64,000 nucleotides of DNA from Candidatus Micrarchaeota archaeon (GTDB lineage: Archaea; B1Sed10-29): assembly GCA_964579265.1 (NCBI GenBank), contig CAZOFO010000003.1:15968-79967 (forward strand), written 5' to 3'. Each line of letters begins with the position of its first letter. The first letter of the stretch is position 1. The position numbers and the translations under genes were made by a program. Shown in pieces: positions 1,204 through 30,553 of this stretch. The notes under the pieces were generated by a model. The model was not told the DNA's origin. It was given only the letters and a program-made list of their open reading frames with translations, and did no database searches.

Positions 1204-1302
1204 AAAAAGAAGCTGAAGTAATCTATCCTCCCTATCTCAAAACACGAACCACCGTGAAACTAATAAATAAAATAAAATACAAAATTAATACAGGAGATCT
1301 CT

Positions 1303-2052
1303 ATGAAATCCTCAACCAAAAATATAGTTTACATAACATTTGGAATACTACTGATCACAATAGCTTCTTCCTTTGCCTTTGCAGCACCCACTTCTTCTCA
1401 ATGTGATGCCTACATTGAAGATGCAAAAGAAGAAGCCACTCAACCATATCCTGATTATCTTTCTTCAGGAGAAAAATACTTCAGCGCTGCTAGATGTTAC
1501 GAAAGAGTAGGAGAAGAATCAAAAGCAGAAGAAGCCTACGAAAAATCAGCAGAACAACTAAGTAAAGTTGCAGAAGTACTAGGAAACCATAGATTAGCAG
1601 CGGAAAGCCATGAAAAAGCAGCAATTTCTTATGAAGCAATAGGAAGAACATCAGAGGCTCTAGAGAATTATGAGAAAGCAATGTTGAGGTATCAATCGGC
1701 AGGAAATTCTGTAAAAGCACAGGAAATGGGAGAAAAAATTGAAGAGATGAAAGAAGAATCTACTCCTATACAGGAAATAAGAGGTAATGCCAGGAGCATC
1801 ATAGGATTAATCTCCCTAACAGTACTTTTCCTCTCAATCTTGGTTCTAATATTGATAGGGATCGCAAACTTCGCTAATTTTGGAAAAGAAGCAGTAGGAG
1901 AAGAAAAGCCAGATGATGAAACACCAGGGTTAGCAAATATAGAATCAAAGGAAAAAGAAAAAGAAGAGGAAGAAAATCTTGAAAGAACAAAAAAGAAGAA
2001 ATCACCAAGACAAAGAGCAATAGAGAAACTCAGAGAAAAGTACAAACCCTGA
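1303..2052 (+). CDS. Hypothetical membrane-anchored protein (signal/TM N-terminus, helical A/E/K-rich ectodomain, C-terminal TM plus basic tail)
   Basis: Hydrophobic N-terminus ending AFA-AP, second hydrophobic segment LISLTVLFLSILVLILIGIA, charged KEKEKEEEE tail. No recognisable family. Confidence 0.4.
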   Translation: MKSSTKNIVYITFGILLITIASSFAFAAPTSSQCDAYIEDAKEEATQPYPDYLSSGEKYFSAARCYERVGEESKAEEAYEKSAEQLSKVAEVLGNHRLAAESHEKAAISYEAIGRTSEALENYEKAMLRYQSAGNSVKAQEMGEKIEEMKEESTPIQEIRGNARSIIGLISLTVLFLSILVLILIGIANFANFGKEAVGEEKPDDETPGLANIESKEKEKEEEENLERTKKKKSPRQRAIEKLREKYKP

Positions 2053-2097
2053 ATTATCTAAAATTCTATAAATAACAAAAAGACAGGAGAAACCACC

Positions 2098-3816
2098 ATG
2101 TCAAATTTTGAAATAAAAAGAAAAGACCTAGCAGGCAGAATCGGTAAATTAAAAACCAAACACGGAGAAATAGAAACACCAACTATTCTGCCAGTGGTAA
2201 ACCCAAATAAAATAACTCTAAATTCTCAAGAACTAAAAGAAACAGGATCAAAAGCAATAATCACAAATGCCTATATTCTAAAGAAAGATCACCTACACGA
2301 AGTAATTACACAAGGGATACATAACTTCCTGGATTTCCACGGACCCATAATGACGGATTCCGGAGCCTATCAACTAATGAGATACGGAAACCTTGAAATA
2401 AACAACAGAGAAATACTGGAATTTCAAGAAAAAATAAACACAGATATAGGAGTAATGCTAGACATCCCAACAGAAAGCGAAAAAGAAAAAGAAATACATA
2501 AAACAGTGAAAAAAACTATAGAAAGAGCAAAAGAAAGCGAAGAATACATAAAAAACAAAGAAACACTACACGTAGGTCCACTCCAAGGATGGAAAAAACC
2601 CAAAATATTCAGAGAATGCGTAAAAAAACAATCAAAACTAGAATTCGATCTCCATGCTCTAGGATCAATAGTGCCGACCATGGAGAAATACAGATATTCA
2701 AAACTAATGGAACCGCTTAGAATAATAAAAGAAGAAATACCTGAAAACAGACCAATACATCTCTTTGGAGCAGGACACCCGATGCTGATGCCTTTCCTAG
2801 TGGCAATGGGTGCAGATATGTTTGACTCAGCAGCTTACTCTCTTTACGCTGAAGAAGGAAGATACCTAACATCTACCGGAACCAAGAAACTTGAAGAAAT
2901 TAATTATTTACCCTGTAATTGCCCGGTATGCACAAAGGCAGAGAATAATCCACAAAATCTGGAAAAAGAAAAAACCAAGAAAAAACTAGCAAAACATAAT
3001 CTACACGTTACCTTCAAAGAAATAAATAAAATAAAACAATCTATAAAAGAAGGAACACTCTACGAACTACTTGAAACAAAATCAAGATCCCACCCATCAC
3101 TCAAAAAACTAATGGATGAACTAACAAGCGATACAAGAACAATAGAAAAAAGAGACCCAGTATCAAAGAAACACATGTTCGTAGTATCGGAATACAGCAA
3201 AAAAAGACCGGACTACAGGAGAGCAATTAAAAAAGCTAAAAAAATAAAAGAAGAACAAGAGAAAACAATAAATACTCCTGAATTTGGAGAAGTTCCTTTA
3301 AGCTTAATGGAACTCTACCCGTATTCACATACAGGAAGAGAAATAAAAGAAGATAAAAGAAAAAATATAGAAGATTTAAAGAAATTAAAAACGGCTAGTA
3401 AATACTGGCTAGGAAAAGATATAGTTCCAAAAGACGTCGAAATAAAAAAATCACCAAAAACAGGTAAAATAAGAAAACTAATCAGAAGAGGAGAACTCTA
3501 CTTAGTGATAAGAGCAAGCGACTACATGTTCCTACTACACGAAGCAGCCAAAAAACTACATAGAGAAACTAAATACCCTAAAAGAAGAATAGTAATGAAC
3601 GAAGAAGCATCTGAATTCGTTGAAAAAGGAAAAACAGTATTCAACAAATTCGTTACAGATATCGATCCCGAACTAAGACCCGGTGAACCAGTATTAATGG
3701 TAAATGAAGAAGACGAACTCCTTGCTGCAGGAGAAACTTATCTATCAGCAAAAGAAATAAAAGAAATGGACAGAGGAGAAGCAGCAAAAAACAGATGGAA
3801 AGCTAAAAGAGACTAA
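2098..3816 (+). CDS. tgtA: Archaeosine tRNA-guanine transglycosylase (ArcTGT) with C-terminal PUA-like region
   Basis: TGT catalytic motifs DFHGPIMTDSGAYQ and LFGAGHPMLMPFLVAMGADMFDSAAY; zinc site CNCPVC; 572 aa fits archaeal ArcTGT; K/E-rich insertion present. Confidence 0.85.
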   Translation: MSNFEIKRKDLAGRIGKLKTKHGEIETPTILPVVNPNKITLNSQELKETGSKAIITNAYILKKDHLHEVITQGIHNFLDFHGPIMTDSGAYQLMRYGNLEINNREILEFQEKINTDIGVMLDIPTESEKEKEIHKTVKKTIERAKESEEYIKNKETLHVGPLQGWKKPKIFRECVKKQSKLEFDLHALGSIVPTMEKYRYSKLMEPLRIIKEEIPENRPIHLFGAGHPMLMPFLVAMGADMFDSAAYSLYAEEGRYLTSTGTKKLEEINYLPCNCPVCTKAENNPQNLEKEKTKKKLAKHNLHVTFKEINKIKQSIKEGTLYELLETKSRSHPSLKKLMDELTSDTRTIEKRDPVSKKHMFVVSEYSKKRPDYRRAIKKAKKIKEEQEKTINTPEFGEVPLSLMELYPYSHTGREIKEDKRKNIEDLKKLKTASKYWLGKDIVPKDVEIKKSPKTGKIRKLIRRGELYLVIRASDYMFLLHEAAKKLHRETKYPKRRIVMNEEASEFVEKGKTVFNKFVTDIDPELRPGEPVLMVNEEDELLAAGETYLSAKEIKEMDRGEAAKNRWKAKRD

Positions 3817-3853
3817 ATAATTTTTTAAATATCTATAAATCTCCTTTTCTCCA

Positions 3854-5542
3854 CTACAATACTTTAAATACAGCTAAACAATTAGTTTCCTGGTCCTTCA
3901 CTTCACAGCCTTCAGGATAATTGTAAACTTCTTCAAACCTATCATCCGAAGATAAATACTCTACAAATTCAATAGTATATGTGTCTCTAGTAGTTTCCTC
4001 ATGAATAAAGCTACTTCTAATAATCAAGTAATCGACTCCTATAGTCTCAACTACATCATAAGACTTATCAAAATGAGTTAAAGCAATATCCATACCAGGA
4101 TATTTATTACTAATGCTCTTCCTCCTACAGTGATAATCAATCATATGATCCCAGTGATAAAAAACCACAGAATCCTCTTCTGTATTTTCTCTTACCCAAT
4201 CACATCCTTCAAAAACCATTTCAGAAGGAGTTAAATCTCTTAAAGATTCAGTATGTCCATAAGAACCAACTAAAAACAACCCAAATACAGATAAAACAAA
4301 TATAGATTTAAATAATATCTTCAATTTATCTTTAATTCTTTTTCTTCCTTTAATATAATCTACTAAGTTTCCTATTTTCCCGTAAATCTTTTCCAACGCA
4401 AAACCTCCGGCCATTGATAAAGGAGCCACTACAAATAAAGTATTTCTCGAAACACTACCAATATCTTTGTCCCAAATTAATAAATAAACAAAAAAGAAAG
4501 ATATCAAAACCCATAGAACAGGTATAAGATACTTCTTCTTCCTTTCAAAGAAATATACAATGAATCCAAGGATTCCAATTAAAAAGATAGGTACGCTGTA
4601 AGCAAAACTTATATAATTAAACAACCCTTCTTCATGTAAATTTCCCCTATGTCCTGTCATAACAGGTAGATCTACATCTATATCAGGTAATTCTTCTTCA
4701 TAGCTACCTTCTTCCCTTAAATCAATTCCAAGAGGATTCAAAACTCTATGTGAATCAAAACCTAGTCCATTTCCTGCTCTATAATTATGAATTATCCAAG
4801 GACCCATCATGAACAGAGTAATAACTATTAAAATACTGAAATCTTTGAAAAACTTATTTAAATCTTTCTTATAAACATAAAGAACTATTAAAAATACAAA
4901 AGGAATAACTAGAACATTTTGAGCAGTTAAAACTGAAAAACCAAATAAAATACCGGTTGAAAATAAATAAAATCTTTTTTCCTCCTCTAAATAACTATAA
5001 AAGAAATAAAAAGACCCTATCAAAAACATCAAAGCCACAAGCTCAACATATATAAAAACAGTATGAGTTATCAAAGCAGGGATAGAAAGATACAAAGCCA
5101 CTGAAAAAACCCCAGACTTTACAGAATGCATCTTCCTAACCAATAAAAATAATAAAAGAGCAGAAATAACTGAAACTATAGGCATAAACATCCTCATACC
5201 TACTTCACCAGCTATAGAGTAAGAAAAACCTAACAAAATAAATAACATTGGTTCTCTAGTAAGAGGACGATCTCCTCTTATTTCAGTTTCTCCAAAAACA
5301 GTTCTAGAAAGTTCAAAACTCTCACCAAAATTTTCTGATCTTGTCAAATAAAATCCCTCATCTCCATAACCTAAAGGCTCGTACAAAGAAAATCTCAAAG
5401 TGATTAGAAAACTAGATAGTAAAATTAAACCTAGTAAAAAATACCATAAATAATCCTCCCTCTCAAAAATACCATAAATCCATCCTTGGTATTTATCTAA
5501 ATCTGAAAAACCCAGACTCATATCACATCTAAATATTACCAA
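3854..5542 (-). CDS. Putative GT-C fold membrane glycosyltransferase (ArnT/PMT-like), ~12 TM plus C-terminal soluble domain
   Basis: Many TM helices; first loop has an acidic YGDEGFY motif resembling the DE motif of GT39/GT83 enzymes; 562 aa. Family assignment is tentative. Confidence 0.4.
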   Translation of the reverse strand: MVIFRCDMSLGFSDLDKYQGWIYGIFEREDYLWYFLLGLILLSSFLITLRFSLYEPLGYGDEGFYLTRSENFGESFELSRTVFGETEIRGDRPLTREPMLFILLGFSYSIAGEVGMRMFMPIVSVISALLLFLLVRKMHSVKSGVFSVALYLSIPALITHTVFIYVELVALMFLIGSFYFFYSYLEEEKRFYLFSTGILFGFSVLTAQNVLVIPFVFLIVLYVYKKDLNKFFKDFSILIVITLFMMGPWIIHNYRAGNGLGFDSHRVLNPLGIDLREEGSYEEELPDIDVDLPVMTGHRGNLHEEGLFNYISFAYSVPIFLIGILGFIVYFFERKKKYLIPVLWVLISFFFVYLLIWDKDIGSVSRNTLFVVAPLSMAGGFALEKIYGKIGNLVDYIKGRKRIKDKLKILFKSIFVLSVFGLFLVGSYGHTESLRDLTPSEMVFEGCDWVRENTEEDSVVFYHWDHMIDYHCRRKSISNKYPGMDIALTHFDKSYDVVETIGVDYLIIRSSFIHEETTRDTYTIEFVEYLSSDDRFEEVYNYPEGCEVKDQETNCLAVFKVL

Positions 5543-6721: not shown

Positions 6722-8275
6722 ATGAAAGAAACATTTAAAAAATTAATCAAAACCAGGAGAATACAGATATTCATAATAGGAATCATATTGATAGGTATAG
6801 TACCCATACCTCTTAGAGAAATCGACCTAGGAATGGACTTTAGAGGAGGAACTATGATAGACCTCAGACTGGATGAAGAAGTCGATTCCGCTACTATGTC
6901 AACCATGACACAGGTACTAGAAGAAAGAGTAGATACTTACGGATTGAGAGACGTATCTGTAACACCACAAGGAAGAAGATATATCAGAGTAGAAGTGGCT
7001 GAAACAGATCCAGAAGCAATAGAAGCTCTAAGACAGATAATAGGACAGCAAGGAAGCTTCGAAACTCTATACGATGGAGAAGTAATACTCCACGGTAGAG
7101 ACGTAGTTGACGTCATAACCGACCCAGAACAAGGATACGGAGCAAGAGGAGGTCCAGAAACAGGATACAGATGGAGCGTACCCTTCAGAATTACTCCTGA
7201 CGCAGCAAATTCATTTGCAGAATCAGTAGAAGGAGAATGCACCCCTACACCTGATGGACAAAGATGCCAAGAACTACTATACATGTTCATAGACAGACCA
7301 CATAACTCCGTAGTCATAATGAATAATGAACTATACGAAGAAGAAAGAGAAGTACCACAATCCCTGGAAAAAGAAGAAACACCAATGGGAGCAGTTGAAG
7401 GAGAAATAGAAATAGAAGAAATAATAAGAAACTCAGGATCCGAATTAATAGTAACCGAAGAAATAGACGAAGAAACCCTAAACAAAACCGAAAATAAAAC
7501 AGTACTAATACCCCAGGATATGTTCAACCCTGAAGAAATACAAAATGCAGAAGAAGTAATAGAAGTACCATACACCGAAAATTACTGGATAGGAAACGCC
7601 CTAAACATAGAAACCATAGTACACCTCACCCCAGGGATAACTCGAGGAGAACCAGTAGACACACCAAGCATAACAGGAGGAGCAGAAACAGAAGAACAAG
7701 CATTCGAAGAAATAGAAAGAATAAGAATACTCCTAAGATCAGGAAGACTACCAGTAGGAGTACAAATAGAAAGAGAAGACAGAATGTCCCCCCTATTAGG
7801 AGAAAGATTCTTAGATTACTCTATAATGGCAGGTATAGCTGCATTAATAGCAGTATCCATGGTAGTTTCATTCAGATACAAGAAAAAGAAAATAGTTGCC
7901 CCGATGCTCATGACTAGTTTCTCAGAAGTACTGATGACACTAGGAGCAGCAGCCTTAATAGGTTGGCAGCTTGATCTACCTGCAATAGCAGGAATAATAG
8001 CAGTAGTAGGTACAGGAGTCGATCACCAGATCATTATGACTGAAGAAGCAATAGAAAAAGAATCAGATGAAGAAGAAAGCCTAGCAAGAAGAATAAAGAA
8101 AGCATTTTCCATAATACTAAGATCAGCAATGACAACCATATTCGCGATGTTCCCACTACTATTCATGGGTCTAGGAGCTCTACAAGGATTCGCTATAACA
8201 ACAATAATAGGAAGCATAATAGGAGTAACAATCTCAAGACCAGCTTACAGAGCTATAATAGATGAAATACTTTAA
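6722..8275 (+). CDS. secD: Protein-export membrane protein SecD
   Basis: GMDFRGGTMIDLRL motif, large periplasmic domain, C-terminal TM bundle with GTGVDHQIIMTEE (the SecD GVDxxI motif). Confidence 0.75.
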   Translation: MKETFKKLIKTRRIQIFIIGIILIGIVPIPLREIDLGMDFRGGTMIDLRLDEEVDSATMSTMTQVLEERVDTYGLRDVSVTPQGRRYIRVEVAETDPEAIEALRQIIGQQGSFETLYDGEVILHGRDVVDVITDPEQGYGARGGPETGYRWSVPFRITPDAANSFAESVEGECTPTPDGQRCQELLYMFIDRPHNSVVIMNNELYEEEREVPQSLEKEETPMGAVEGEIEIEEIIRNSGSELIVTEEIDEETLNKTENKTVLIPQDMFNPEEIQNAEEVIEVPYTENYWIGNALNIETIVHLTPGITRGEPVDTPSITGGAETEEQAFEEIERIRILLRSGRLPVGVQIEREDRMSPLLGERFLDYSIMAGIAALIAVSMVVSFRYKKKKIVAPMLMTSFSEVLMTLGAAALIGWQLDLPAIAGIIAVVGTGVDHQIIMTEEAIEKESDEEESLARRIKKAFSIILRSAMTTIFAMFPLLFMGLGALQGFAITTIIGSIIGVTISRPAYRAIIDEIL

Positions 8276-8389
8276 AAACTAGAAAAATAAATCAAAATCT
8301 ATCTTAGATTCTAATGCTGGGAAAAACCATATAAAAAACCAATCCCTTATTCAAATATCTAAAGCAAAAATACAGAAAAACTGATAGAA

Positions 8390-9142
8390 ATGCCAAAACT
8401 CGGGAGCCAAAAAGATCTTGAAAAAACGGATGAAGATACAATCGAAAGAATCCCAACAGGAGTACCTGGACTCGATAACCTGCTTGAAGGAGGATTTCCA
8501 CATCCATCAACCATACTACTAACAGGTAATTCTGGAACAGGAAAAACAGTCCTAGGACTACAATACTTATACAATGGAGTAAAACAAGAAGATCAACCAG
8601 GAATATACTTATCCGTCCAGGCTCATCAAACAGACGTTACCTGGTACTGTTCCAAATTCAATCTAGACATAGCAGAACTTCAAGAAGAAAGAGAACTAGT
8701 TGTAAGCAATTATGAAATACCTCAATACGAACAATTTCATTCCAAAACAGCAGCAAGAGAAATAAATAAAAAACTAGGAAGAATAATAGACTCAGTAAAC
8801 GCGAAAAGAATAGTTATAGATAGCATAACACCATTTGGTTACCTATCAAACTCAAAAGCAGATTATAGAGAATTACTATATAAAATATCTCAAAAACTAA
8901 AAGAAGAAGAATGCACCACGATAATGATCTCTTCAGGATCACAAAAAGAAAAATTAACTCCTTTTGAAGTAGAACCTTACTTAGCTGATGGGGTTATAAA
9001 ACTAAGTAAAGAAGAAAAAGGCAGAAAAAGAAAGAGAACATTACACATAAACAAGATGACAGCCACTAGAACACCTCTGGAAGATATTAACTTTAATCTG
9101 TCAGAGGAAGGATTCAAACTACTACCTTCCTACTACGGGTAG
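8390..9142 (+). CDS. KaiC-like RecA-superfamily ATPase (single domain)
   Basis: Walker A in IPTGVPGLDNLLEGGFPHPSTILLTGNSGTGKTVLGLQYLYNG; 250 aa typical of archaeal single-domain KaiC homologs. Confidence 0.65.
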   Translation: MPKLGSQKDLEKTDEDTIERIPTGVPGLDNLLEGGFPHPSTILLTGNSGTGKTVLGLQYLYNGVKQEDQPGIYLSVQAHQTDVTWYCSKFNLDIAELQEERELVVSNYEIPQYEQFHSKTAAREINKKLGRIIDSVNAKRIVIDSITPFGYLSNSKADYRELLYKISQKLKEEECTTIMISSGSQKEKLTPFEVEPYLADGVIKLSKEEKGRKRKRTLHINKMTATRTPLEDINFNLSEEGFKLLPSYYG

Positions 9143-9238
9143 TACTCTTGAGAACCAATAAAGATAAAGAAACCAAAAATCAAATAAATAATACTTCCAC
9201 ATTATTTTAACCTGTAAGATAATAAAAACTATACAGAT

Positions 9239-9311
9239 AGTCCTGTAGTCTAGCGGCCAAGGATGTAGGGCTTTGGACCCTAAGACGGCGGTTCGAATCC
9301 GCCCAGGACTA
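9239..9311 (+). tRNA. tRNA-Gln (anticodon TTG), no intron, CCA not encoded
   Basis: Manual fold: 7-bp acceptor AGTCCTG/CAGGACT; anticodon arm TAGGG-CTTTGGA-CCCTA; T-arm GGCGG-TTCGAAT-CCGCC; 73 nt. Confidence 0.8.
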
Positions 9312-9318
9312 TATTTCT

Positions 9319-9813
9319 CTACCACGGTTCTTTTTTTAAACCCAGAGAATAACCGATAAAATTAGTTAACAAATGAATAATAGGAGTAAAAACCAATATA
9401 AGGACTAAAGCTTTAAGAGAAGGTAGTTTTAAAATCGAACCCAAAACAATTGCTCCAAAAACAAAATCAAGCTGATCCAATAATGGGACTAAACCTCCTC
9501 TATTCACCCCTAATCTTCTTTTAAAGAAACTAGCAACTATATCTCCTGATAAAGCTCCAACGGAAGTAAAAAGACCTAACCAAACAAAGAGATTGTTACC
9601 TGTAACTAAAAAGATCATGATACCTATTATAAATCCAAGAAGTATCCCTGAAAACGTTCCCCGTACTGTCTTACCATCTCCCAATATCCTCTTTCCATTA
9701 TATTTCCTTCCTCCGTCTATTGGTCTTCCTCCTCCAAAAACAACTGCTGAAGAATTAGCAACATAAGCTGGAAATATGTAAAGGAAAGCCTCTATTAATA
9801 TTTCTATCATCAA
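9319..9813 (-). CDS. carS: CDP-archaeol synthase (CarS, DUF46 family)
   Basis: YVANSSAVVFGGGRPIDGG...ILGDGKTVRGTFSG matches the CarS/DUF46 signature; 164 aa, multi-TM. Confidence 0.75.
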   Translation of the reverse strand: MMIEILIEAFLYIFPAYVANSSAVVFGGGRPIDGGRKYNGKRILGDGKTVRGTFSGILLGFIIGIMIFLVTGNNLFVWLGLFTSVGALSGDIVASFFKRRLGVNRGGLVPLLDQLDFVFGAIVLGSILKLPSLKALVLILVFTPIIHLLTNFIGYSLGLKKEPW

Positions 9814-9861
9814 ACCACTTCTTATAGATTTAATCTTTTTTTACTATAAATTATTGATGAT

Positions 9862-10551
9862 TCAAAGAAATATAATTAATAGATAGATTAACATCGCTGA
9901 AATGGCTCCACAAGTAGTTGCCAGGAAATTAGTAATAGTGTTACCTATTGCTCCTTTCCCCTCCAGCACAGCTCCGATGAAAGAGTCAGCAAAATTCCCT
10001 AAAATTCCTGAAAGTAATGCTACTGGAACCACTATCCATCCTAATTCAAAGACTGAAATCAAACCTATTATTAATGCTCCTAACCCTCCTGCTAATGTAC
10101 CTAAAAAAGTTATTCCTCCGTTTGTACCTGGTTCAACTTTTTTTAGATTAGTTATTAATCTAGGTTTTGATTTTGAAAGAACTCCTAATTCGGAAGATAC
10201 AGTATCTGCCGTAGCAGTAGCAACGACTCCTATGAACGCTATAAAACCTACTACTCCTCCTAGAAGAGCCATTAAAAGGCCGATACCTGCATTACCCATT
10301 ACATTCCAAGCTCCTCTAGTTTTTTGCATTAAATCAGATTCTTTTTTCTCATCTGATTTGATTCTTGTTACAACTGTTCCGATTAAGTAAAATGAAAAAA
10401 GTATTAGAAACCATGAAAAATTCTGTCTAATTATAAGTATATATGAAAGAAAAATAGCTGAAAAAGCTCCTTTAATAGTTAAAGATCTTTTTTCAAGTCC
10501 GAATAGAGCTATAAATAGAGGTAAGGCGAATTTTATTAGGTTAAAAGACAT
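9862..10551 (-). CDS. DUF92/TMEM19-like integral membrane protein
   Basis: Polytopic membrane protein ~229 aa with RGAWNVMGNAGIG and FADS/GN motifs reminiscent of DUF92. Assignment is tentative. Confidence 0.4.
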   Translation of the reverse strand: MSFNLIKFALPLFIALFGLEKRSLTIKGAFSAIFLSYILIIRQNFSWFLILFSFYLIGTVVTRIKSDEKKESDLMQKTRGAWNVMGNAGIGLLMALLGGVVGFIAFIGVVATATADTVSSELGVLSKSKPRLITNLKKVEPGTNGGITFLGTLAGGLGALIIGLISVFELGWIVVPVALLSGILGNFADSFIGAVLEGKGAIGNTITNFLATTCGAISAMLIYLLIIFL

Positions 10552-10556
10552 TTTAG

Positions 10557-11156
10557 TTATTCTCCCTCTTCTACTTCACATTTAGTTATCTCGATTCTTT
10601 TTATAGGGGCTATTTCCTTTGCTTCTTTGAAAAGAGCTGTTGCTGTCTTACCAAATATCATTTTTTGAACAAGAGAATCAAAGTTGTTCTCTTTACTTTG
10701 TTTATGAAGTTCTTCACTCATTATCTTCCTTATCTTTTTTTCTTTTGATGAGTGTAGTTTTCCAACGGTAAACGCGTAGACAGTGACATGTAGGTTTTTA
10801 TCGTCTACTTCTATATCTTCTATTGTTTTTATAACGCTTCTTCCTTTTCTTATATTCTTTCTTATGTAATCTCTTGTTACTTTGAAGCTTTTGATTTTTG
10901 TTCTTATGGTTTCTCCTTCTATACCTTCTATTTTGAATTTTATTTTTATGTTATTATGATTTCTTTTCCCTGTTAGGTCTCTTAGTGAAGTTTCTATTGT
11001 TCTTTCTTCTAATTCATCTGTTTCTATTGCTGGTGTTTCCCCTATACCTTTTTCTTCAAATATTTCAGGGGCTTCTATTTTGTACCATTCTTTGTCTTTC
11101 CATTTGTTGGCTTTTTTAGCTGTTTTTGCTTTTGGCATATAATCACTATTTTTCAA
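10557..11156 (-). CDS. rps3ae: 30S ribosomal protein S3Ae (eS1)
   Basis: N-terminus AKKANKWKDKEWYKIEAPEIF is the S3Ae hallmark; 199 aa. Confidence 0.85.
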   Translation of the reverse strand: MKNSDYMPKAKTAKKANKWKDKEWYKIEAPEIFEEKGIGETPAIETDELEERTIETSLRDLTGKRNHNNIKIKFKIEGIEGETIRTKIKSFKVTRDYIRKNIRKGRSVIKTIEDIEVDDKNLHVTVYAFTVGKLHSSKEKKIRKIMSEELHKQSKENNFDSLVQKMIFGKTATALFKEAKEIAPIKRIEITKCEVEEGE

Positions 11157-11604
11157 CTAGTAGTTTTGCTTTTTCTGGGTCGTAGTACCAGTTATCTTCT
11201 AATTCTCCTTGTTTTTTATAGTATTTTGTTAGTCTTCTAATCTTTGATTCTATTAGTTTTAGATTTCTTTTGTTCTTTTTATCTTTATTGTGTTTTTCTA
11301 GGTGTTTTCTTACTTTTACTGCTTTTTCCATTAGGTTCATCAGGTCTTCTGGGTATTCTGATTCTTTTCCTTCTTTTTCAAGTATTTGAGTTATTTTTTC
11401 TCCTGTAACTGCTTTGACATCTGGTACTCCGTATTCGTCTCTCAGTATTCTTCCAATATCGCTTGGATTTTTTCCTTCTTCTCTTAATTCTATTATTTTT
11501 TCTCTTATCTCTTTTTCGGATTGGTCAATCCATGTTGGGGGTTCATCTGATGCGGGGGAGGTTGAACCTGATTTTCCCTTGTCTTTTGTGTGCATTCTTG
11601 TCAT
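11146..11604 (-). CDS. rps15: 30S ribosomal protein S15 (uS15/S13e)
   Basis: MTRMHTKDKGKSGS... IGRILRDEYGVPDVK ... ESKIRRLTKYY are conserved uS15 motifs. Confidence 0.85.
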   Translation of the reverse strand: MTRMHTKDKGKSGSTSPASDEPPTWIDQSEKEIREKIIELREEGKNPSDIGRILRDEYGVPDVKAVTGEKITQILEKEGKESEYPEDLMNLMEKAVKVRKHLEKHNKDKKNKRNLKLIESKIRRLTKYYKKQGELEDNWYYDPEKAKLLVEK

Positions 11605-23870: not shown

Positions 23871-23880
23871 GGTTTATAAT
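23871..23880 (+). promoter_or_regulatory. Putative TATA box (ggTTTATAAT) upstream of the mevalonate-pathway operon
   Basis: AT-rich TTTATAAT element ~22 nt before the first ATG (23902) and ~52 nt before the second in-frame ATG (23932) in a divergent intergenic region. Sequence-only guess. Confidence 0.25.
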
Positions 23881-23901: not shown

Positions 23902-25257
23902 ATGAATGTTTTCGATAGGGGGTTCTTTAAAATGTCACTGAGAAGTTTTCTGAAGAGGCAAAGAGAGAGGGAGAATTTGAATAAGGTTTCTAGACAGGTT
24001 AATCCTGACTTTGAAGCAAGTTCAATAGCTTTTGAAGATCAATCAAAACCGGTTGTATTCGAGAATGTGGAAGGTTATCCTGATATCAAGATGGTTTCTA
24101 ATATTGTGTCCTCTAGAGATATGATAGCGGATTCATTGGGTGTTGATAAAGGAGATATACTTTTTGAATTATCAAATGCTTACGATTCTCTAGAAAAATG
24201 CGTTGAATCTGATAAATCTATTAAGAGTTATAATAATTTTGGTAAACCTAACCTGATAGATCACTTGCCTATCCTTAAGTATTATAGTAAAAAAGAAGAT
24301 GGGGAAGTAAAGGATCCTAGGTACCTTGCTTCCTGTATGGTTATAGCTAAGGATCCTGAAGACGGTTCTCAGAATCTATCTTTTCATAGGTTAATGTATC
24401 AAGGAGATAACAAGTTCACAATAAGGATAGTTCCACGTCACTTATATGAAATAAATGAAAAGAAAGAAGGAGATTTAGAAGTAGCTATAATAAGAGGAGT
24501 AGATCCTAGAATAGAGATAGCTGGAGCTACATCAGGTTCTCCTGATATGGATGAACTAGAGTATGCTAATGCTTTAATGGATCAAGATCTCGAGTTGATT
24601 GATCTAGACGGTTTAAAAATTCCTGCAGATTCAGAAGTTGTTATGAAAGCAAGAATAACTCAAGAAAAAGACGTAGAAGGTCCCTTTGTCGACTTATCTG
24701 AAACTTGGGATAAAGAAAGACAACAACCTGTGCTGGAAGTAGATAATTTATACATGAAAGAAAATCCTTATGTTAGGTTCCTCGTACCAGGAAAAAACGA
24801 ACACAAACACTTGATGGGTCTTCCACAGGAACCTAGGATATATAATAAAGTGAGAGAAACAGTCCCTACAGTTCAAAACGTAATAATATCTAAAGGAGGA
24901 TGCTCTTGGCTTCATGGTGTAGTAAAAATAAAAAAGAGGAATGAAGGTGATGCTAAAAACGCTGGAATGGCGGCACTAGCTGGTCATCCTTCCATGAAGA
25001 GAGTGGTTATCGTGGATGAAGATATCGATCCTACAGATCCACAAGAAGTTGAATGGTCAATAGCGACTAGAATGCAGCCTCACAAAGACATAAACTTTAT
25101 AAAAAGAGCAAAAGGATCTTCTTTAGATCCTTCTCAAGATTATAAAAATAGATTAATGACGAAATGGATAATTGACGCTACTATACCTCACGACAAGGAC
25201 GAAGACTTTTCCAAAGCAAAAATACCTCAAGTAGAAGATAAAGATACGGAGGAATAA
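23902..25257 (+). CDS. UbiD-family decarboxylase, candidate trans-anhydromevalonate 5-phosphate decarboxylase
   Basis: UbiD-like N-terminus (VVFENVEGYPDIKMVSNIVSSRDMIADSLGV) and 451-aa length; immediately upstream of acnX/ipk/mvk genes. Confidence 0.7.
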   Translation: MNVFDRGFFKMSLRSFLKRQRERENLNKVSRQVNPDFEASSIAFEDQSKPVVFENVEGYPDIKMVSNIVSSRDMIADSLGVDKGDILFELSNAYDSLEKCVESDKSIKSYNNFGKPNLIDHLPILKYYSKKEDGEVKDPRYLASCMVIAKDPEDGSQNLSFHRLMYQGDNKFTIRIVPRHLYEINEKKEGDLEVAIIRGVDPRIEIAGATSGSPDMDELEYANALMDQDLELIDLDGLKIPADSEVVMKARITQEKDVEGPFVDLSETWDKERQQPVLEVDNLYMKENPYVRFLVPGKNEHKHLMGLPQEPRIYNKVRETVPTVQNVIISKGGCSWLHGVVKIKKRNEGDAKNAGMAALAGHPSMKRVVIVDEDIDPTDPQEVEWSIATRMQPHKDINFIKRAKGSSLDPSQDYKNRLMTKWIIDATIPHDKDEDFSKAKIPQVEDKDTEE

Positions 25258-25258
25258 C

Positions 25259-26437
25259 ATGCATCTAACAAAAGAAGAAGAAAAAATGCTTGAATCTGGA
25301 TCAAAACCGGTTAGAAAAGCAATGGAGCTACTGGTAAGACTAGGAGATATTTACGGAGCTGAAGAAATGATAGAAGTTAACTCAGCTCAAGCATCAGGCG
25401 TATCATATAAATCAATAGGAGACCCAGGTATAGAGTTCCTAGAAGGATTTGCAGAAGAAGGAGCAGAAGTGAAAATACCTACCTTTGCAAATCCAGCTGG
25501 AATGGATCTAGAAAGATGGAAAGAAATGGACGTGTCTGAAGAATTTGCTGAAAAACAAAAAAGGATAATCAAAGCAATGAAGGAAATGGGTATAATTACC
25601 ACGACATCCTGTACTCCTTATCTATTTGGGAACCTGCCTAGAAAAAACGAACATATAGCATGGGCGGAATCCTCTGCAGTTTCATTCGCTAACTCTGTAA
25701 TAGGAGCTAAAACAAATAGAGAAGGAGGTCCATCAGCACTATCAGCAGCTATAACAGGAAGAACTCCTAATTACGGACTACATTTAGAAAAAAATAGAAA
25801 ACCAACTCACCTTATAGAGGTTAAAACTGATCTAGAAACTATTTCAGATTTCGGAGCCCTTGGATCTTGGGTTGGAAGAGAAGTAGAGGATGGAAAACCC
25901 TATTTCAAAGGAATTAAAAATGCTAAGACAGATGAATTAAAATCTCTAGGAGCAGCAATGGCAGCATCAGGAGCAGTAGCACTATACTTCGTGGGAGGGA
26001 TAACTACTGATAGAGAAAAACCTGAAGACCTGGAAAAAATCGAATTTACAGAAAAAGAAAAAAAAGAAGAATACCAAGAACTAAACCAAGCTCAAGATCC
26101 TGATCTAATCGTATTCGGATGTCCACACGCATCAATAGAAGAAATAAAAGAAATATCTGAATCACTGGACGGAGAAACATTGGAAAAAGACCTCTGGGTA
26201 TGCACAAATAGAGCTGTAAAATCCTGGGCCGATAGAATGGGTTACACCGAAAAAATAGAGGAATCAGGTGGAAAAGTACTCTGCGATACCTGTAATGTAG
26301 TATGTCCTCTGGAAGATATGGAATATGAGAACACAGGTACAAACTCAGGTAAAGCAGCTAACTACTTACCTGGTTTCTGTGACCAAGAGATAATTTTCTC
26401 AGATAGAAAAAAATTGATAAAAAAGGCGATAAAATGA
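25259..26437 (+). CDS. Aconitase X large subunit (DUF521), candidate phosphomevalonate dehydratase large subunit
   Basis: DUF521/AcnX-type sequence (SAQASGVSYKSIGDPG...TTTSCTPYLFGNLPRKNEHIAWAESSAVSFANSVIGAKTNREGG); stop overlaps the small-subunit start. Confidence 0.7.
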   Translation: MHLTKEEEKMLESGSKPVRKAMELLVRLGDIYGAEEMIEVNSAQASGVSYKSIGDPGIEFLEGFAEEGAEVKIPTFANPAGMDLERWKEMDVSEEFAEKQKRIIKAMKEMGIITTTSCTPYLFGNLPRKNEHIAWAESSAVSFANSVIGAKTNREGGPSALSAAITGRTPNYGLHLEKNRKPTHLIEVKTDLETISDFGALGSWVGREVEDGKPYFKGIKNAKTDELKSLGAAMAASGAVALYFVGGITTDREKPEDLEKIEFTEKEKKEEYQELNQAQDPDLIVFGCPHASIEEIKEISESLDGETLEKDLWVCTNRAVKSWADRMGYTEKIEESGGKVLCDTCNVVCPLEDMEYENTGTNSGKAANYLPGFCDQEIIFSDRKKLIKKAIK

Positions 26438-26841
26438 AAATCAAAGGAAGATCAATATCAAAAGGTGAAGCAAAAGGAGAAGTAATGATATCTAAGGAAC
26501 CAATAGGGTTCTATGGAGCTGTAAATCCAGAAACAGGTGAATTTATAGAAGAGGGACATGAATTAGAGGGAAAAAATATCTCTGGAAAAATACTAGTATT
26601 CCCAAAAGGAAAAGGATCTACAGTAGGATCTTATGTCCTCTACGGTTTGGCAAAAAATAACAAAGCACCGAAAGCTATAATAAACAAAGAAACAGAAACA
26701 ATCGTTGCAACAGGATGTATACTTGGTGAAATACCTTGTGTGGATAAACTAGAAAAAGATCCTTTAAAAAATCTAAGCGAAGGAGAAAAATTAAAGGTAA
26801 ATGGGGACCAAGGAACTATTGAAAAAATGAATGAAGAATAG
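26434..26841 (+). CDS. Aconitase X small subunit (DUF126), candidate phosphomevalonate dehydratase small subunit
   Basis: ~135-aa swivel-domain protein (ISGKILVFPKGKGSTVGSYVLYGLAKNNKAPKAIINKETETIVATGCILGEIP) translationally coupled to the large subunit. Confidence 0.7.
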   Translation: MKIKGRSISKGEAKGEVMISKEPIGFYGAVNPETGEFIEEGHELEGKNISGKILVFPKGKGSTVGSYVLYGLAKNNKAPKAIINKETETIVATGCILGEIPCVDKLEKDPLKNLSEGEKLKVNGDQGTIEKMNEE

Positions 26842-26852
26842 AGGTATTTTCT

Positions 26853-27635
26853 ATGGATAATTTAAAACTGCTTAAAGTAGGTGGATCAATAATCACTGAA
26901 AGAAAAGCAGAAAAACCTACTCCAAGAGAAAAAGAAATGGAAAGAGTTGCAAAAGAGATATCAAAATCTTACTCTGAATCTATGAAAATGGTTTTAATAC
27001 ATGGGGCAGGTAGTTACGGTCATCCTATAGTTAAGAGAACAGGTATATCTAATGGAATGTCTAATAGAAAAGATAAAGTTAATTTCGCAGAAACCCAAAG
27101 ACTTCAAAATAAATTAAATTCATTATTTACCAAAAAACTAATAGAACAAGGCCTACCAGCTTTTCCCTTCCAGGCTTCGGCTTCAGCAGTGAGAAAAAAT
27201 GAATTAAAAAGAATGGAAGTTGATCTAATTAAAAAACTCTTGGAAGAAAATGTTATACCTGTACTTTACGGTGTACCTGCTTACGATGAAGATAAAGGTT
27301 GTTCAATTCTTTCGGGAGATGAGATAATGCCTTTCTTAGCTAAGGAATTAGATGCAAACCTAATGCTCCATGGTACAGATGTAGAAGGAGTTTATACTTC
27401 TGATCCTTCTGAAGATGATTCTGCAGAATTATTAAAGAATATAGGTTCTTTTGAAGAAGCTAAAAATTATTTAGGAGGAAGTAAACATACTGATGTGACT
27501 GGTGGGATGTTGAATAAAATAGAAAAAGCATTTGAATTAAATGTGGATAGTATTATCTTCAATGCTTCTACCAAAGGTAATATTAAGAAAGTTCTGAATG
27601 GTGAAGAAATTGGGACCTATATAAATGCTTATTAA
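26853..27635 (+). CDS. ipk: Isopentenyl phosphate kinase (amino-acid kinase family)
   Basis: LKVGGSIIT...KMVLIHGAGSYGHP glycine-rich motifs of the IPK/amino-acid kinase fold; 260 aa. Confidence 0.75.
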   Translation: MDNLKLLKVGGSIITERKAEKPTPREKEMERVAKEISKSYSESMKMVLIHGAGSYGHPIVKRTGISNGMSNRKDKVNFAETQRLQNKLNSLFTKKLIEQGLPAFPFQASASAVRKNELKRMEVDLIKKLLEENVIPVLYGVPAYDEDKGCSILSGDEIMPFLAKELDANLMLHGTDVEGVYTSDPSEDDSAELLKNIGSFEEAKNYLGGSKHTDVTGGMLNKIEKAFELNVDSIIFNASTKGNIKKVLNGEEIGTYINAY

Positions 27636-28637
27636 TTATCTTGAAATTGATCCATTTACTCCCATTTTTGTAATAATAGTTTTTCCTCCTTCTTTTTCTA
27701 TTGCTCGGGCTATTCCTTCCTGTTTCTCATTTGATGTAAGTGCGATCATTATGCCTCCTTTTCCTCCTCCGGATAGTTTTGCTCCGTAGGCTCCGTTCTC
27801 TCTTGCAGTTTGAATTAGTCTTTCTAGTTTTGGGTGGCTTACTCCTAATGTCTTCAGTTTCTCCTGGTTTTTGTTCATCAGTTCCCCTAGTTCCTCAGGT
27901 TTATTTTCTTCAACTGAACTTGCTCCTTTCTCGACCAATTCTTCTATTTCATTGAATATTCTGTTATAGCTTTCCGGGTGCTTTTCCCATCCTTTTTTTA
28001 CATAAGGGACTGTTTCACTTGTTTCTGATTTTATCTGTGTATCTCCTATTACTATTTGAAGAGGTTTTGGATCTTTATTTTCGTATTCTATACCTATTTC
28101 TTTTTCTTCTTTCTTCCTAACTGTATTGTATCCTCCTAATGAGCTTGAAATTATTTCACTCCCCGATGCTGCCCCTCCGTGTATCCTTACTTGTATAGGG
28201 TATATTGTTTTGAAGTATTCTTCTGCATTCATCTCTGTATCAGTTACTTTATTTAAGGTTCTTAGCAGTGATGAGGTTACTGCGGTAGAACTGCTCATTC
28301 CTCCTGATTCTTTAGGTATTTCTGTATCTATTTTTATCTGTAGACCTGTTTCTAAGTTTTTATATTCGTTATAGATAGATAAAAGATCGATTAAAGGGTC
28401 TAATTCATGTGTATAATCTTCTGGAGAATTATATTCAACTTTTTTTATTTTCTCTAGTTCTAAGTTTTTTTCTCCGTATCCTTTGGATTTTATATTTATT
28501 TTTTTATCTTTTCTTTTTTCGATTTTTGTCTCTGTATATTTTCCTATTGATGCTATCAATGCTTTTCTTCCATAGACTACGCTATGTTCTCCCAGTAGAA
28601 ATATATTTCCTGGTGCTTTTGCTTTTTTTCTTTTCAT
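27636..28637 (-). CDS. mvk: Mevalonate kinase (GHMP kinase)
   Basis: APGNIFLLGEHSVVYG GHMP motif 1 and GxSSS-type motif (GGMSSSTAVTSSLL); 333 aa; upstream of rps2, a common archaeal arrangement. Confidence 0.8.
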   Translation of the reverse strand: MKRKKAKAPGNIFLLGEHSVVYGRKALIASIGKYTETKIEKRKDKKINIKSKGYGEKNLELEKIKKVEYNSPEDYTHELDPLIDLLSIYNEYKNLETGLQIKIDTEIPKESGGMSSSTAVTSSLLRTLNKVTDTEMNAEEYFKTIYPIQVRIHGGAASGSEIISSSLGGYNTVRKKEEKEIGIEYENKDPKPLQIVIGDTQIKSETSETVPYVKKGWEKHPESYNRIFNEIEELVEKGASSVEENKPEELGELMNKNQEKLKTLGVSHPKLERLIQTARENGAYGAKLSGGGKGGIMIALTSNEKQEGIARAIEKEGGKTIITKMGVNGSISR

Positions 28638-28648
28638 ATTTGATCTTT

Positions 28649-29266
28649 CTATTTGAATTGGAAATCTTCTATCTCTTCGTCAAATTCATCGTTTTCTTTT
28701 ATTATCTCTTTGTTTTTCAGTGTTTCTCTTGCTATTAGGTAGTAGGCTAGTGCCAGAGATTGTTTTCCTTTATTGTTTATAGGTAGAATCAAGTCTATGT
28801 TGTTCACCATGTTTGAAGTATCACATAGGCTTATTACTGGTGTTTTGGATATTCTTGCTTCTTCTATTGCTTGTTGGTCTACTGATGGGTCCGCTGTTAT
28901 TACTAGTTCTGGTTCCAGGAATTTGTCTCCTCTAGGGTTTGTTAGTAGTCCTGGTGGGTATCTTCCGGTTTCTGAGTTTGCTCCTATTTTGTCAGCCATT
29001 TTTTCAGCTGGTTTTTGAGCGTATTTTCTCCCTGCTACTACTAGTATCTTGTTTGGGTCTTTTTCTGCTATCATGTTCGCTGCTTTTTTAATTCTTTCAT
29101 CTATTTTTGCTATGTTAAGTAACCATAATCCATCATCTCTACATTTATAAGTGAAAGGATCCATTTGTCCTGTTTTGTATTTCGATCCTATGTGTGCTCC
29201 TGTCTCTAGGTATTTTTCTACGGATACTAATGGGTTTTCTATTTTTCCTTGTTCGTTTTTTTCCAT
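28649..29266 (-). CDS. rps2: 30S ribosomal protein S2 (uS2)
   Basis: YLETGAHIGSKYKTGQMDPFTYKCRDDGLWLLNI is the uS2 N-terminal signature. Confidence 0.85.
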   Translation of the reverse strand: MEKNEQGKIENPLVSVEKYLETGAHIGSKYKTGQMDPFTYKCRDDGLWLLNIAKIDERIKKAANMIAEKDPNKILVVAGRKYAQKPAEKMADKIGANSETGRYPPGLLTNPRGDKFLEPELVITADPSVDQQAIEEARISKTPVISLCDTSNMVNNIDLILPINNKGKQSLALAYYLIARETLKNKEIIKENDEFDEEIEDFQFK

Positions 29267-29317: not shown

Positions 29318-30553
29318 TTATCTGCTTATGTAGTGTTCTATTCTGATCAATTCATTTAGTTTTGCTACTCTTTCTCCTCCTGCTATCCCTGTTTTTATTA
29401 TTGGTATGTTTTCTGCTAGTGCTATGTGAGCTATTGTTGAGTCGTTTGTTTCACCTGATCTATGGGATATTACAGGGGTGTATCCAATTTCTTTTGCTTT
29501 TTTTATTGTTTTTCTTGTTTCGGTTATTGTGCCTATTTGGTTTGGTTTTATAAGGATGGAGTTGCAGGCTTTTTTTTCTATCCCTTTTTCTAATCTTTCT
29601 ATTTTGGTTGTGAATAGATCGTCTCCGCATATTGTCTTTTCTGGGTTTTTTTCTGTTAATTCAGCGTGTTTTTCGTAGTCTTCTTCTTGTAGAGGGTCTT
29701 CTATATATTCTAAGTCGTATTTTTCTATTAGTTTTTGGATGTATTCTAATTGTTCTTCCGGTGTTCTTTCTTTATCTTGGTATTGATACTTTCCTTTTCT
29801 ATAGAATTCAGATGCTGCTACGTCTATTCCTAGTTTTATATCTATTTCAGGGTTTAAACCATTTTCTTTTTCTTTAATTTGTTTTAATGTTTTTTCTCTT
29901 GCTTCTTTTATCGTTTCTAGAGATTTTTCATTATTTAGAGTAGTGGTATATCCATTTTCTAGGTCTTTACCTGCTGTGAAGTGTTTATCTTTCTTTTTTA
30001 GTATTTTTTTCACGTTCTTTTGCATTTTTACATTTACTATGCATGATTCTTTGAATGTGTCTGTTTTTATCGGTATTGATAGGAATTCTTGTATTTCAGG
30101 GCCTTTTCCTGCGTGTTGTCCTCCTCCTATGAGTTTTCCTAGTGGTTGTGGTAGTATGTATTCATTTCTTTCTTCTAGGTGGAAGTATAGTGGTTTTTCT
30201 TCTGTATCTGCTGCTGCTTTTGCTATTGCTGTTGATAGAGAGAGGGTTATTGCTGCTCCGTAGTTTTCTAGATTTTCAGTTCCGTCTATTTCTTTTATTT
30301 TTTCATCTATTTCTTCTTGGTTTTCTGAGTTCATCCCTATTATTGACGGGTATAGCTGTCTTTCTGCTTTTTTAATTAGTTCTTTTGGTTTTTCTGGTGT
30401 TTGTTTTACTTCGTGTTTTCCTGCTGATGTTCCTGTGGGGGTGCTTGCTCTTCCAAATCCTGTTGAGGTATAAACATCTGTTTCTATTGTTTTTTCTCCT
30501 TTTGAATTCAGTATTATCTTTGAATCAATTTCTTTTATATCTGATTCTTTCAT
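29318..30553 (-). CDS. eno: Enolase
   Basis: SHRSGETNDSTIAHIALAEN...IKTGIAGGERVAKLNELIRIE enolase C-terminal signature; 411 aa. Confidence 0.85.
   Translation of the reverse strand: MKESDIKEIDSKIILNSKGEKTIETDVYTSTGFGRASTPTGTSAGKHEVKQTPEKPKELIKKAERQLYPSIIGMNSENQEEIDEKIKEIDGTENLENYGAAITLSLSTAIAKAAADTEEKPLYFHLEERNEYILPQPLGKLIGGGQHAGKGPEIQEFLSIPIKTDTFKESCIVNVKMQKNVKKILKKKDKHFTAGKDLENGYTTTLNNEKSLETIKEAREKTLKQIKEKENGLNPEIDIKLGIDVAASEFYRKGKYQYQDKERTPEEQLEYIQKLIEKYDLEYIEDPLQEEDYEKHAELTEKNPEKTICGDDLFTTKIERLEKGIEKKACNSILIKPNQIGTITETRKTIKKAKEIGYTPVISHRSGETNDSTIAHIALAENIPIIKTGIAGGERVAKLNELIRIEHYISR

Follow-up and report, generated by a model that had tools for sequence, protein, structure and literature searches.

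A predicted lower archaeal mevalonate pathway encoded beside rps2 in a DPANN-type archaeon

In Aeropyrum pernix and Methanosarcina mazei, the archaeal, modified form of the mevalonate pathway proceeds through mevalonate kinase (MVK), phosphomevalonate dehydratase (PMDh), anhydromevalonate phosphate decarboxylase (AMPD) and isopentenyl phosphate kinase (IPK) (PMC10040528, citing Hayakawa et al. 2018 and Yoshida et al. 2020). An earlier report of mevalonate pathway enzymes covers Micrarchaeota, Aenigmarchaeota and Diapherotrites (PMC6107057), and the genes 'usually form gene clusters' (PMC11052028). The legend of Fig. 2 in PMC5817203 describes a conserved archaeal gene string of RpoK, ribosomal protein S2, MVK, isopentenyl phosphate (IP) kinase and isopentenyl diphosphate (IPP) isomerase (followed in brackets by prenyl diphosphate synthase), accompanied by enolase. 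Here we analyse a 64,000-nucleotide stretch of contig CAZOFO010000003.1 from a Candidatus Micrarchaeota archaeon, hereafter the window, in which five adjacent genes very probably encode the lower half of this Aeropyrum-type pathway, from mevalonate to IPP.

The genes occupy the order and place given to them by a sequence-only reading of the window, on which the list of open reading frames (ORFs) and the curated family thresholds agree:

23932..25257, plus strand: UbiD-family decarboxylase gene (441 aa; placed by Pfam, NCBIfam, clade, motifs, catalytic residues, synteny and dN/dS)
25259..26437, plus strand: aconitase-X (AcnX) type IIb large subunit, the predicted large subunit of PMDh (392 aa; PF04412, 7cnr_A match, residue mapping)
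26434..26841, plus strand: aconitase-X type IIb small (swivel) subunit, the predicted small subunit of PMDh (135 aa; PF01989, NF003046, 7cnr_B match)
26853..27635, plus strand: isopentenyl phosphate kinase of the amino-acid kinase fold (260 aa; NF040647, PF00696)
27636..28637, minus strand: mevalonate kinase, a GHMP kinase (333 aa; TIGR00549, GHMP N and C domains)

As in A. pernix and M. mazei, the same four enzyme families are present, with a two-subunit AcnX of type IIb, a UbiD decarboxylase and an IPK of the amino-acid-kinase fold. Unlike those organisms, the one studied here is an uncultured, AT-rich archaeon of DPANN type. The sequence-only reading had taken the five genes for the alternative archaeal mevalonate enzyme set, and both the active site of the UbiD homolog and the grouping of the AcnX pair, described below, favour that view. 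It had also called the cluster complete; this holds only for the lower pathway from mevalonate to IPP, as that reading in part allowed.

Profile searches placed every protein in the family expected of it, including the UbiD, DUF521, DUF126 and AA_kinase assignments made earlier from the sequence. The UbiD homolog matched PF20695, PF01977 and PF20696 (UbiD_N, UbiD and UbiD_C), all above gathering scores and with an E-value of 1.8e-40 for the core domain, and scored 338.4 bits against TIGR00148 in NCBIfam (cut-off 244.85). The large AcnX subunit (AcnX-L) matched PF04412 in Pfam at 507.6 bits (E 2.6e-152), and the small subunit (AcnX-S) matched the PF01989 swivel domain at 115.1 bits (E 1.3e-33) and the NCBIfam model NF003046 (DUF126/PRK03955) at 180.8 bits (cut-off 163). 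IPK matched PF00696 AA_kinase in Pfam (E 6.9e-45) and the NCBIfam equivalog NF040647 IPPK_Arch at 223.2 bits (cut-off 120), the next-best families, proB, FomA and argB, all falling far under their cut-offs. MVK carries the Pfam domains GHMP_kinases_N and GHMP_kinases_C and scored 208.8 bits against the NCBIfam equivalog TIGR00549 (cut-off 163.05), with the galactokinase, phosphomevalonate kinase and homoserine kinase models all under theirs. Thus four of the five cluster proteins exceed curated NCBIfam cut-offs; for AcnX-L there was no specific model in that collection. Scores of this size lie far above what chance would give.

We infer the substrates and chemistry from what is established for the pathway (reviewed in PMC10040528, PMC9385802 and PMC11052028). 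MVK would convert mevalonate to mevalonate 5-phosphate (MVA5P), which the AcnX heterodimer would dehydrate to trans-anhydromevalonate 5-phosphate. In this dehydration a cluster held by three cysteines would offer a free iron as Lewis acid, with a serine of the small subunit as the base. The UbiD enzyme, loaded with prenylated flavin mononucleotide (prFMN), would then decarboxylate trans-anhydromevalonate 5-phosphate, an α,β-unsaturated acid, to isopentenyl phosphate. This step is expected to proceed by cycloaddition to prFMN with a triad of Arg153, Glu249 and Asp254, by analogy with Fdc1-type acrylic-acid decarboxylases. Finally, IPK would phosphorylate isopentenyl phosphate to IPP.

In a search of the Protein Data Bank (PDB), AcnX-L matched T. 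kodakarensis TK1249 (7cnr_A) at 366 bits (2.1e-108) with 51% identity, and the A. tumefaciens dehydratase of cis-3-hydroxy-L-proline (7d2r_A) at 176 bits (1e-50). The corresponding values for AcnX-S were 139 bits (7e-40) with 55% identity to TK1248 (7cnr_B), and 54 bits (1.7e-13) to the A. tumefaciens enzyme. In type IIb (PMDh) proteins the cluster ligands stand at sites A, 1 and B and are Cys110, Cys283 and Cys342 of T. kodakarensis (Tk), equivalent to Cys122, Cys297 and Cys356 of A. pernix, and the 'site C' Cys of type I does not occur (PMC8184944, PMC10040528). The iron–sulfur ligands of AcnX-L, Cys118, Cys288 and Cys345, align with the three Tk cysteines, and Val347 occupies site C. Using the MVA5P contacts seen in the TkAcnX structure 7CNS (PMC8184944), we found Gly47, Val48, Ser49, Asn78, Glu137, Ser138, Ser139, Lys365 and Tyr369 retained; their Tk counterparts are the Gly-Val-Ser phosphate loop, Asn79, Glu129, Ser130, Ser131, Lys361 and Tyr365, of which Asn79 has been described as specific to TkAcnX (PMC8184944). 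AcnX-S keeps the Ser-Thr-Val segment, which contains the proposed catalytic Ser, within the motif GKGSTVGSY.

The likeness to TkAcnX (TK1249/TK1248, PDB 7CNR/7CNS, PMC8184944) thus extends from the adjacent, overlapping genes to the three iron–sulfur Cys ligands, the catalytic Ser and 11 of the 13 listed MVA5P-contact or pocket residues of the large subunit. The window proteins differ in a 9-residue insertion of AcnX-L relative to TK1249, which follows the PAG(M/I) motif, and in a Tyr of AcnX-S in place of the small-subunit Leu27. Scores, Cys pattern and substrate residues together side with the phosphomevalonate dehydratases, and the predicted activity of the pair is that of a type IIb PMDh and not of a true dehydratase of cis-3-hydroxy-L-proline.

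In the UbiD homolog, numbered here by its 441-residue version, the ligands of the metal and the prFMN phosphate are intact (Asn148, His170 and Glu208). So is the E(D)-R-E triad, Asp254-Arg153-Glu249, as judged from an alignment with HmfF, AnInD, VdcC, AroY and E. coli UbiD in which R155 and E266 of AnInD served as the reference triad residues (PMC8988006). The position of AnInD Glu266 is an Asp in 16 of 16 members of the archaeal clade to which the window protein (Asp254) belongs, and a Glu in all four solved relatives. We considered this Asp as a novelty specific to AMPD and dropped the idea: an Asp stands at this position in E. coli UbiD too (EGPYGDH), so Asp254 is the known '(D)' of the published triad.

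The nearest solved enzyme is P. thermopropionicum HmfF (6H6V/6H6X), matched over its full length at 226 bits with 34% identity, followed by AnInD, VdcC and AroY. Identity to these four is 28–34%, against 45–80% within the archaeal clade, which spans DPANN archaea, anaerobic Halobacteria, Nitrososphaerota and Geothermarchaeales. A neighbour-joining tree separated the 16 archaeal sequences, the window protein among them, from the four solved enzymes in 200 of 200 bootstraps. In the alignment, the clade motifs EGPFVDL[ST]xT, GLPQEPR, GGCSWLH and KGSSLDPSQ occur in none of the solved enzymes. UniRef names several homologs with 50–54% identity 'Anhydromevalonate phosphate decarboxylase'. With its cofactor and catalytic residues in place and its membership of a clade syntenic with AcnX, the protein is a predicted AMPD, an assignment that rests on clade, synteny and rule-based naming. 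A 6-residue insertion (~DGEVKD, within KKEDGEVKDPRY) at residues ~122–127, window ~24295–24312, sets the window protein and the two relatives closest to it (P0002 and P0003) apart from all other aligned clade members, which are without it.

For an estimate of selection, we compared the window with L005 and L006, the orthologous loci nearest to it. Divergence was 0.11–0.20 per site at non-synonymous positions and saturated, at 0.68–0.76, at synonymous ones. For UbiD, AcnX-L, AcnX-S and IPK, dN/dS was about 0.1 or less, with 0.06–0.11 for UbiD. Purifying selection on all four genes of the forward strand is strong, and the decarboxylase is being kept as a working enzyme.

The linkage of UbiD to AcnX recurs in distant archaea, in at least four lineages. 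It was found in the window and in L006, the closest relative with a complete locus, which has the same reduced layout with neither ubiX nor idi2 in the cluster. Halanaeroarchaeum sulfurireducens (L011, CP011564) has the order UbiD-AcnXL-AcnXS-UbiX, and an unclassified assembly (L015) has UbiX-UbiD-AcnXL-AcnXS. In a Nitrososphaerales metagenome-assembled genome (MAG; L012) the order is UbiD-AcnXL-AcnXS, and in an Aenigmatarchaeota MAG (L007, JBKHHE01) it is MVK-?-UbiD-HD-AcnXL-AcnXS-IPK, both with no ubiX in the cluster. The fullest version is in a Diapherotrites MAG (L013, SRR14000038; 2004–12504), where eno-rps2-Memo-HAD-MVK-UbiD-AcnXL-AcnXS-UbiX-IPK-IDI2 are all co-directional; its UbiX and its type 2 IPP isomerase, IDI2, scored 209 bits against TIGR00421 and 380 bits against TIGR02151, respectively. 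An Archaeoglobaceae UbiD homolog with 41% identity (L008) was unlinked to mevalonate genes.

The window shares with the Diapherotrites locus its neighbourhood and the order UbiD, AcnX-L, AcnX-S, IPK, and the two UbiD proteins are 48% identical. Unlike in the window, ubiX stands between AcnX-S and IPK in the Diapherotrites locus and idi2 follows IPK, positions at which the window has an 11-nt spacer and the convergent mvk; in addition, the UbiD-to-IPK block of the window is inverted relative to the Diapherotrites layout. These differences suggest that the window cluster could be a reduced, partly inverted derivative of a super-cluster of the Diapherotrites type. As in the string of PMC5817203, mvk follows immediately downstream of rps2 and enolase and has IPK next to it; unlike that string, the UbiD-AcnX-AcnX-IPK block is inverted with respect to mvk, genes for AMPD and PMDh form part of the arrangement, and IPP isomerase (IDI) is missing. 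The sequence-only reading had found the arrangement next to rps2 unusually tidy. We disagree: this is the canonical place of mvk, here extended by the AMPD and PMDh genes, and the Diapherotrites locus is tidier.

Some features of the comparison loci deserve separate mention. In the anaerobic haloarchaeon H. sulfurireducens (7001–11502), whose UbiD is 52% identical to that of the window and has homologs in several sulfur-reducing haloarchaeal genera, the gene directly after UbiX encodes MvaD, a phosphomevalonate decarboxylase of haloarchaeal type (NF040704, 585 bits, cut-off 475), so that mevalonate 5-phosphate has two alternative routes to isopentenyl phosphate encoded side by side. In the Aenigmatarchaeota locus, a 253-aa ORF with no Pfam match sits between MVK and UbiD. 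A 194-aa ORF between UbiD and AcnX-L (3600–4184) was considered as a UbiX and rejected, as it is an HD-domain phosphohydrolase (PF01966, 56 bits). The distant Archaeoglobaceae homolog (375–4880) adjoins a multi-cluster polyferredoxin, CoaBC and a small gene resembling GHMP kinases, and so has no bearing on the function of the clade.

Several points weigh against reading the cluster as a working lower pathway. The gene for UbiX, the source of prFMN for the decarboxylase, is absent from the cluster, the window and ~18 kb of flanks, and several relatives carry it inside the cluster (L011, L013 and L015). No IDI, 3-hydroxy-3-methylglutaryl-CoA (HMG-CoA) synthase or reductase, or prenyltransferase was seen in the window or those flanks. 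Two MVA5P-contact residues depart from TkAcnX (Asn53 to Ser and Ala47 to Ser). For UbiD, the comparison set was made up of archaeal homologs, four solved enzymes and E. coli UbiD, none of the PDB matches could be recognised from its name as an AMPD structure, and the nearest solved relative is a furandicarboxylate decarboxylase, the specificity His of which is also found in the window protein.

The missing genes invite the strongest alternative, that the cluster is intact but the pathway is incomplete in a reduced genome that lacks UbiX, IDI, the upper pathway or more than one of these. A host or the environment would then supply prFMN, dimethylallyl diphosphate (DMAPP) or intermediates at the level of mevalonate, and the cluster would serve salvage or partial synthesis. 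We consider this unlikely. In its favour, ubiX and idi2 are inside the Diapherotrites cluster, and ubiX inside those of Halanaeroarchaeum and the unclassified assembly, while the clusters of the window and of L006, the relative closest to it, have neither gene. Some 82 kb of the contig contain no such genes. The sequence-only reading had likewise reported no ubiX, IDI or HMG-CoA synthase or reductase gene in the window, and none was seen among its ORFs by a screen of N-terminal sequences, with Pfam searches for the left 14 kb and for 14–36 kb, nor in the ~8 kb and ~10 kb flanks. Prenyltransferases were likewise not seen among the window ORFs or in the ~18 kb of flanks, and geranylgeranyl diphosphate (GGPP) synthase, geranylgeranylglyceryl phosphate synthase (GGGPS) and digeranylgeranylglyceryl phosphate synthase (DGGGPS) were not found in the available sequence. 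Patchy sets of lipid and isoprenoid genes are, moreover, common in DPANN genomes (PMC6107057, PMC11052028).

Against this, the lack of genes from a single contig carries little weight. Nitrososphaerales and Aenigmatarchaeota also have clusters without ubiX, so unlinked ubiX appears to be common, and ubiX, idi and the upper-pathway genes most likely sit in other parts of the genome. That the UbiD gene is under strong purifying selection shows that its enzyme is in use, which requires a supply of prFMN, and carS, found in the window, is a sign that later lipid steps exist. A homolog search with the Diapherotrites UbiX yielded two candidates for inspection, one in a bacterial aromatic-acid locus (L014) and one in the unrelated archaeal cluster of L015; UbiX is too conserved and widespread for attribution to this archaeon. 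We also regard as quite unlikely a more specific history, in which the lineage of the window, L006 and probably L005 would descend from an ancestral DPANN super-cluster rps2-MVK-AMPD-PMDh-UbiX-IPK-IDI2 and would have lost ubiX and idi2, with the modified flavin cofactor or the C5 isomer supplied by a host if the genes are truly absent. In that case the archaeon would hold a prFMN-dependent decarboxylase under strong purifying selection and yet make neither prFMN nor DMAPP. It is plausible that this archaeon, as the sequence-only reading had argued, makes its own isoprenoid lipids.

HmfF is the nearest solved structure, and the Joint Genome Institute (JGI) names several orthologs '2,5-furandicarboxylate decarboxylase 1'; an HmfF-like function was therefore taken as the main rival for UbiD. 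Under this alternative, which we judge very unlikely, the protein would be a (hetero)aromatic acid decarboxylase that merely neighbours mevalonate genes. The window UbiD and HmfF (6H6V/6H6X) have in common the metal ligands, the Arg, the first Glu and His296, and differ in that HmfF has Glu at the position of Asp254. The furan-specificity His of HmfF (H296/297, PMC7976604) was tried as a discriminator and dropped: it aligns with a His in the window protein, but the whole archaeal clade has it and it therefore has no discriminating value. The 34% identity to HmfF falls outside the range seen within the clade, the bootstrap separation is complete, all four clade motifs are missing from HmfF, the gene adjoins those of type IIb AcnX across distant archaeal phyla, and no furan-degradation genes lie nearby. 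The JGI/IMG name is carried by many clade orthologs (for example, P0028, P0045, P0047, P0080 and P0113) and looks like a systematic mis-annotation that stems from an HmfF orthology group.

That the AcnX pair is instead a dehydratase of cis-3-hydroxy-L-proline is extremely unlikely, even though the family has several subtypes of unknown function (PMC8184944), given scores against NF051439 of only 250.2 bits for AcnX-L and 82.3 bits for AcnX-S (cut-off 700), the far better match of AcnX-L to TK1249 than to the A. tumefaciens enzyme, a type IIb Cys pattern with the site-1 Cys present and the site-C Cys replaced by Val, the retention of the phosphate-binding residues including the PMDh-specific Asn, and the flanking AMPD and IPK genes.

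With AMPD, PMDh, IPK and MVK as the preferred assignments, the cluster appears to fall into two transcription units, the signals and neighbours of which are:

23874..23880, plus strand: TATA-like box TTTATAA, read from the sequence, a putative promoter of a four-gene forward operon
23916..23922, plus strand: Shine-Dalgarno-like AGGGGGT, ~9 nt upstream of the ATG at 23932
28649..29266, minus strand: rps2, a conserved archaeal neighbour of mvk (Pfam annotation on an identical contig)
29318..30553, minus strand: enolase, likewise a conserved archaeal neighbour of mvk (Pfam annotation on an identical contig)

The TATA-like box lies in a 162-bp divergent intergenic region between the UbiD gene and a gene for a class-I aminoacyl-tRNA synthetase of Glu/Gln type (tRNA-synt_1c). 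The UbiD stop codon TAA is separated by 1 nt from the ATG of AcnX-L, which has a GGAGG upstream. The AcnX-L and AcnX-S genes overlap by ATGA, which bears out the translational coupling of the DUF521/DUF126 pair suggested earlier, and 11 nt separate AcnX-S from IPK. We infer that UbiD, AcnX-L, AcnX-S and IPK would form a single forward operon with coupled or near-coupled translation. IPK and MVK converge, and their stop codons abut (TAA|TTA, window 27633–27638). This leaves no intergenic room for separate terminators, and transcription of each unit presumably ends within the opposite gene. On the minus strand, MVK starts 11 nt downstream of where rps2 stops, and mvk thus probably closes the eno-rps2 transcription unit.

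The sequence-only reading had placed the start of the UbiD gene at 23902, for a protein of 451 aa. That ORF is present; however, the start is most likely 23932, giving 441 aa. Public gene calls for the identical protein use this ATG, homology to relatives and to HmfF starts at the residue encoded from 23932, and the upstream start would add 10 residues without counterpart in homologs.

Outside the cluster, most of the window is an archaeal supercluster of ribosomal-protein, RNA-polymerase and translation-factor genes. Its left part encodes MscS, archaeosine TGT, a PMT_2 glycosyltransferase, SecDF, a KaiC-like ATPase, carS and a DUF92 membrane protein. The carS gene, which had been noted at 9.3 kb, was recovered there:

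9319..9813, minus strand: carS, CDP-archaeol synthase, a downstream membrane-lipid step (PF01864, 156.7 bits)

Adjacent to it, at 9862–10551 on the minus strand, is the gene for the DUF92 integral membrane protein (PF01940, 188.8 bits; TIGR00297, 177.8 bits, below the cut-off of 205.85). The pairing with carS, an enzyme of lipid activation, may be functional. The plant phytyl-phosphate kinase VTE6 is a member of the DUF92 family, which would suggest a role as a polyprenyl-phosphate kinase.

The closest genomes with an ortholog of the UbiD protein are MAGs labelled Candidatus Micrarchaeota, with 80% identity, Candidatus Iainarchaeum T1Sed10, with 73%, and Candidatus Aenigmatarchaeota, with 56%. 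The window forms part of a 114-kb contig (k141_221138, 114,410 bp) of the metagenome assembly ENA ERZ27266011. Its genes recur in several other samples, including JGI SL_8KL_010_SED, and the organism is present in JGI 3300000557, SRR9330143 and SRR13089369. It is a DPANN-type archaeon, most likely of soda-lake sediment. The GC content of the window is ~30–39%, mostly near 35%, and its coding strands are strongly purine-loaded. AT skew is -0.5 to -0.65 over long blocks of minus-strand genes and +0.1 to +0.2 over the plus-strand genes at 24–28 kb; this flip with gene strand points to an unusually heavy purine (A) loading of the coding strands.

The pathway, its enzymes, their wide distribution, including most DPANN archaea, and their clustering near rps2 are already published, and the exact proteins are in public databases; the finding therefore adds an instance and not a concept. 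It also draws attention to the wrong labels, '2,5-furandicarboxylate decarboxylase' or simply a generic UbiD, that orthologs of the decarboxylase widely carry. A cluster without ubiX and idi2, when compared with relatives that have them, bears on how the cofactor is supplied genome-wide. If the loss were true, the supply of prFMN or DMAPP by a host would be a dependency at the level of cofactors not so far described for DPANN symbionts. As it stands, the ATP-saving archaeal route that leads from mevalonate to IPP is very probably encoded, and maintained by selection, in a DPANN-type archaeon of soda lakes, which bears on the metabolic autonomy of such archaea with small genomes.

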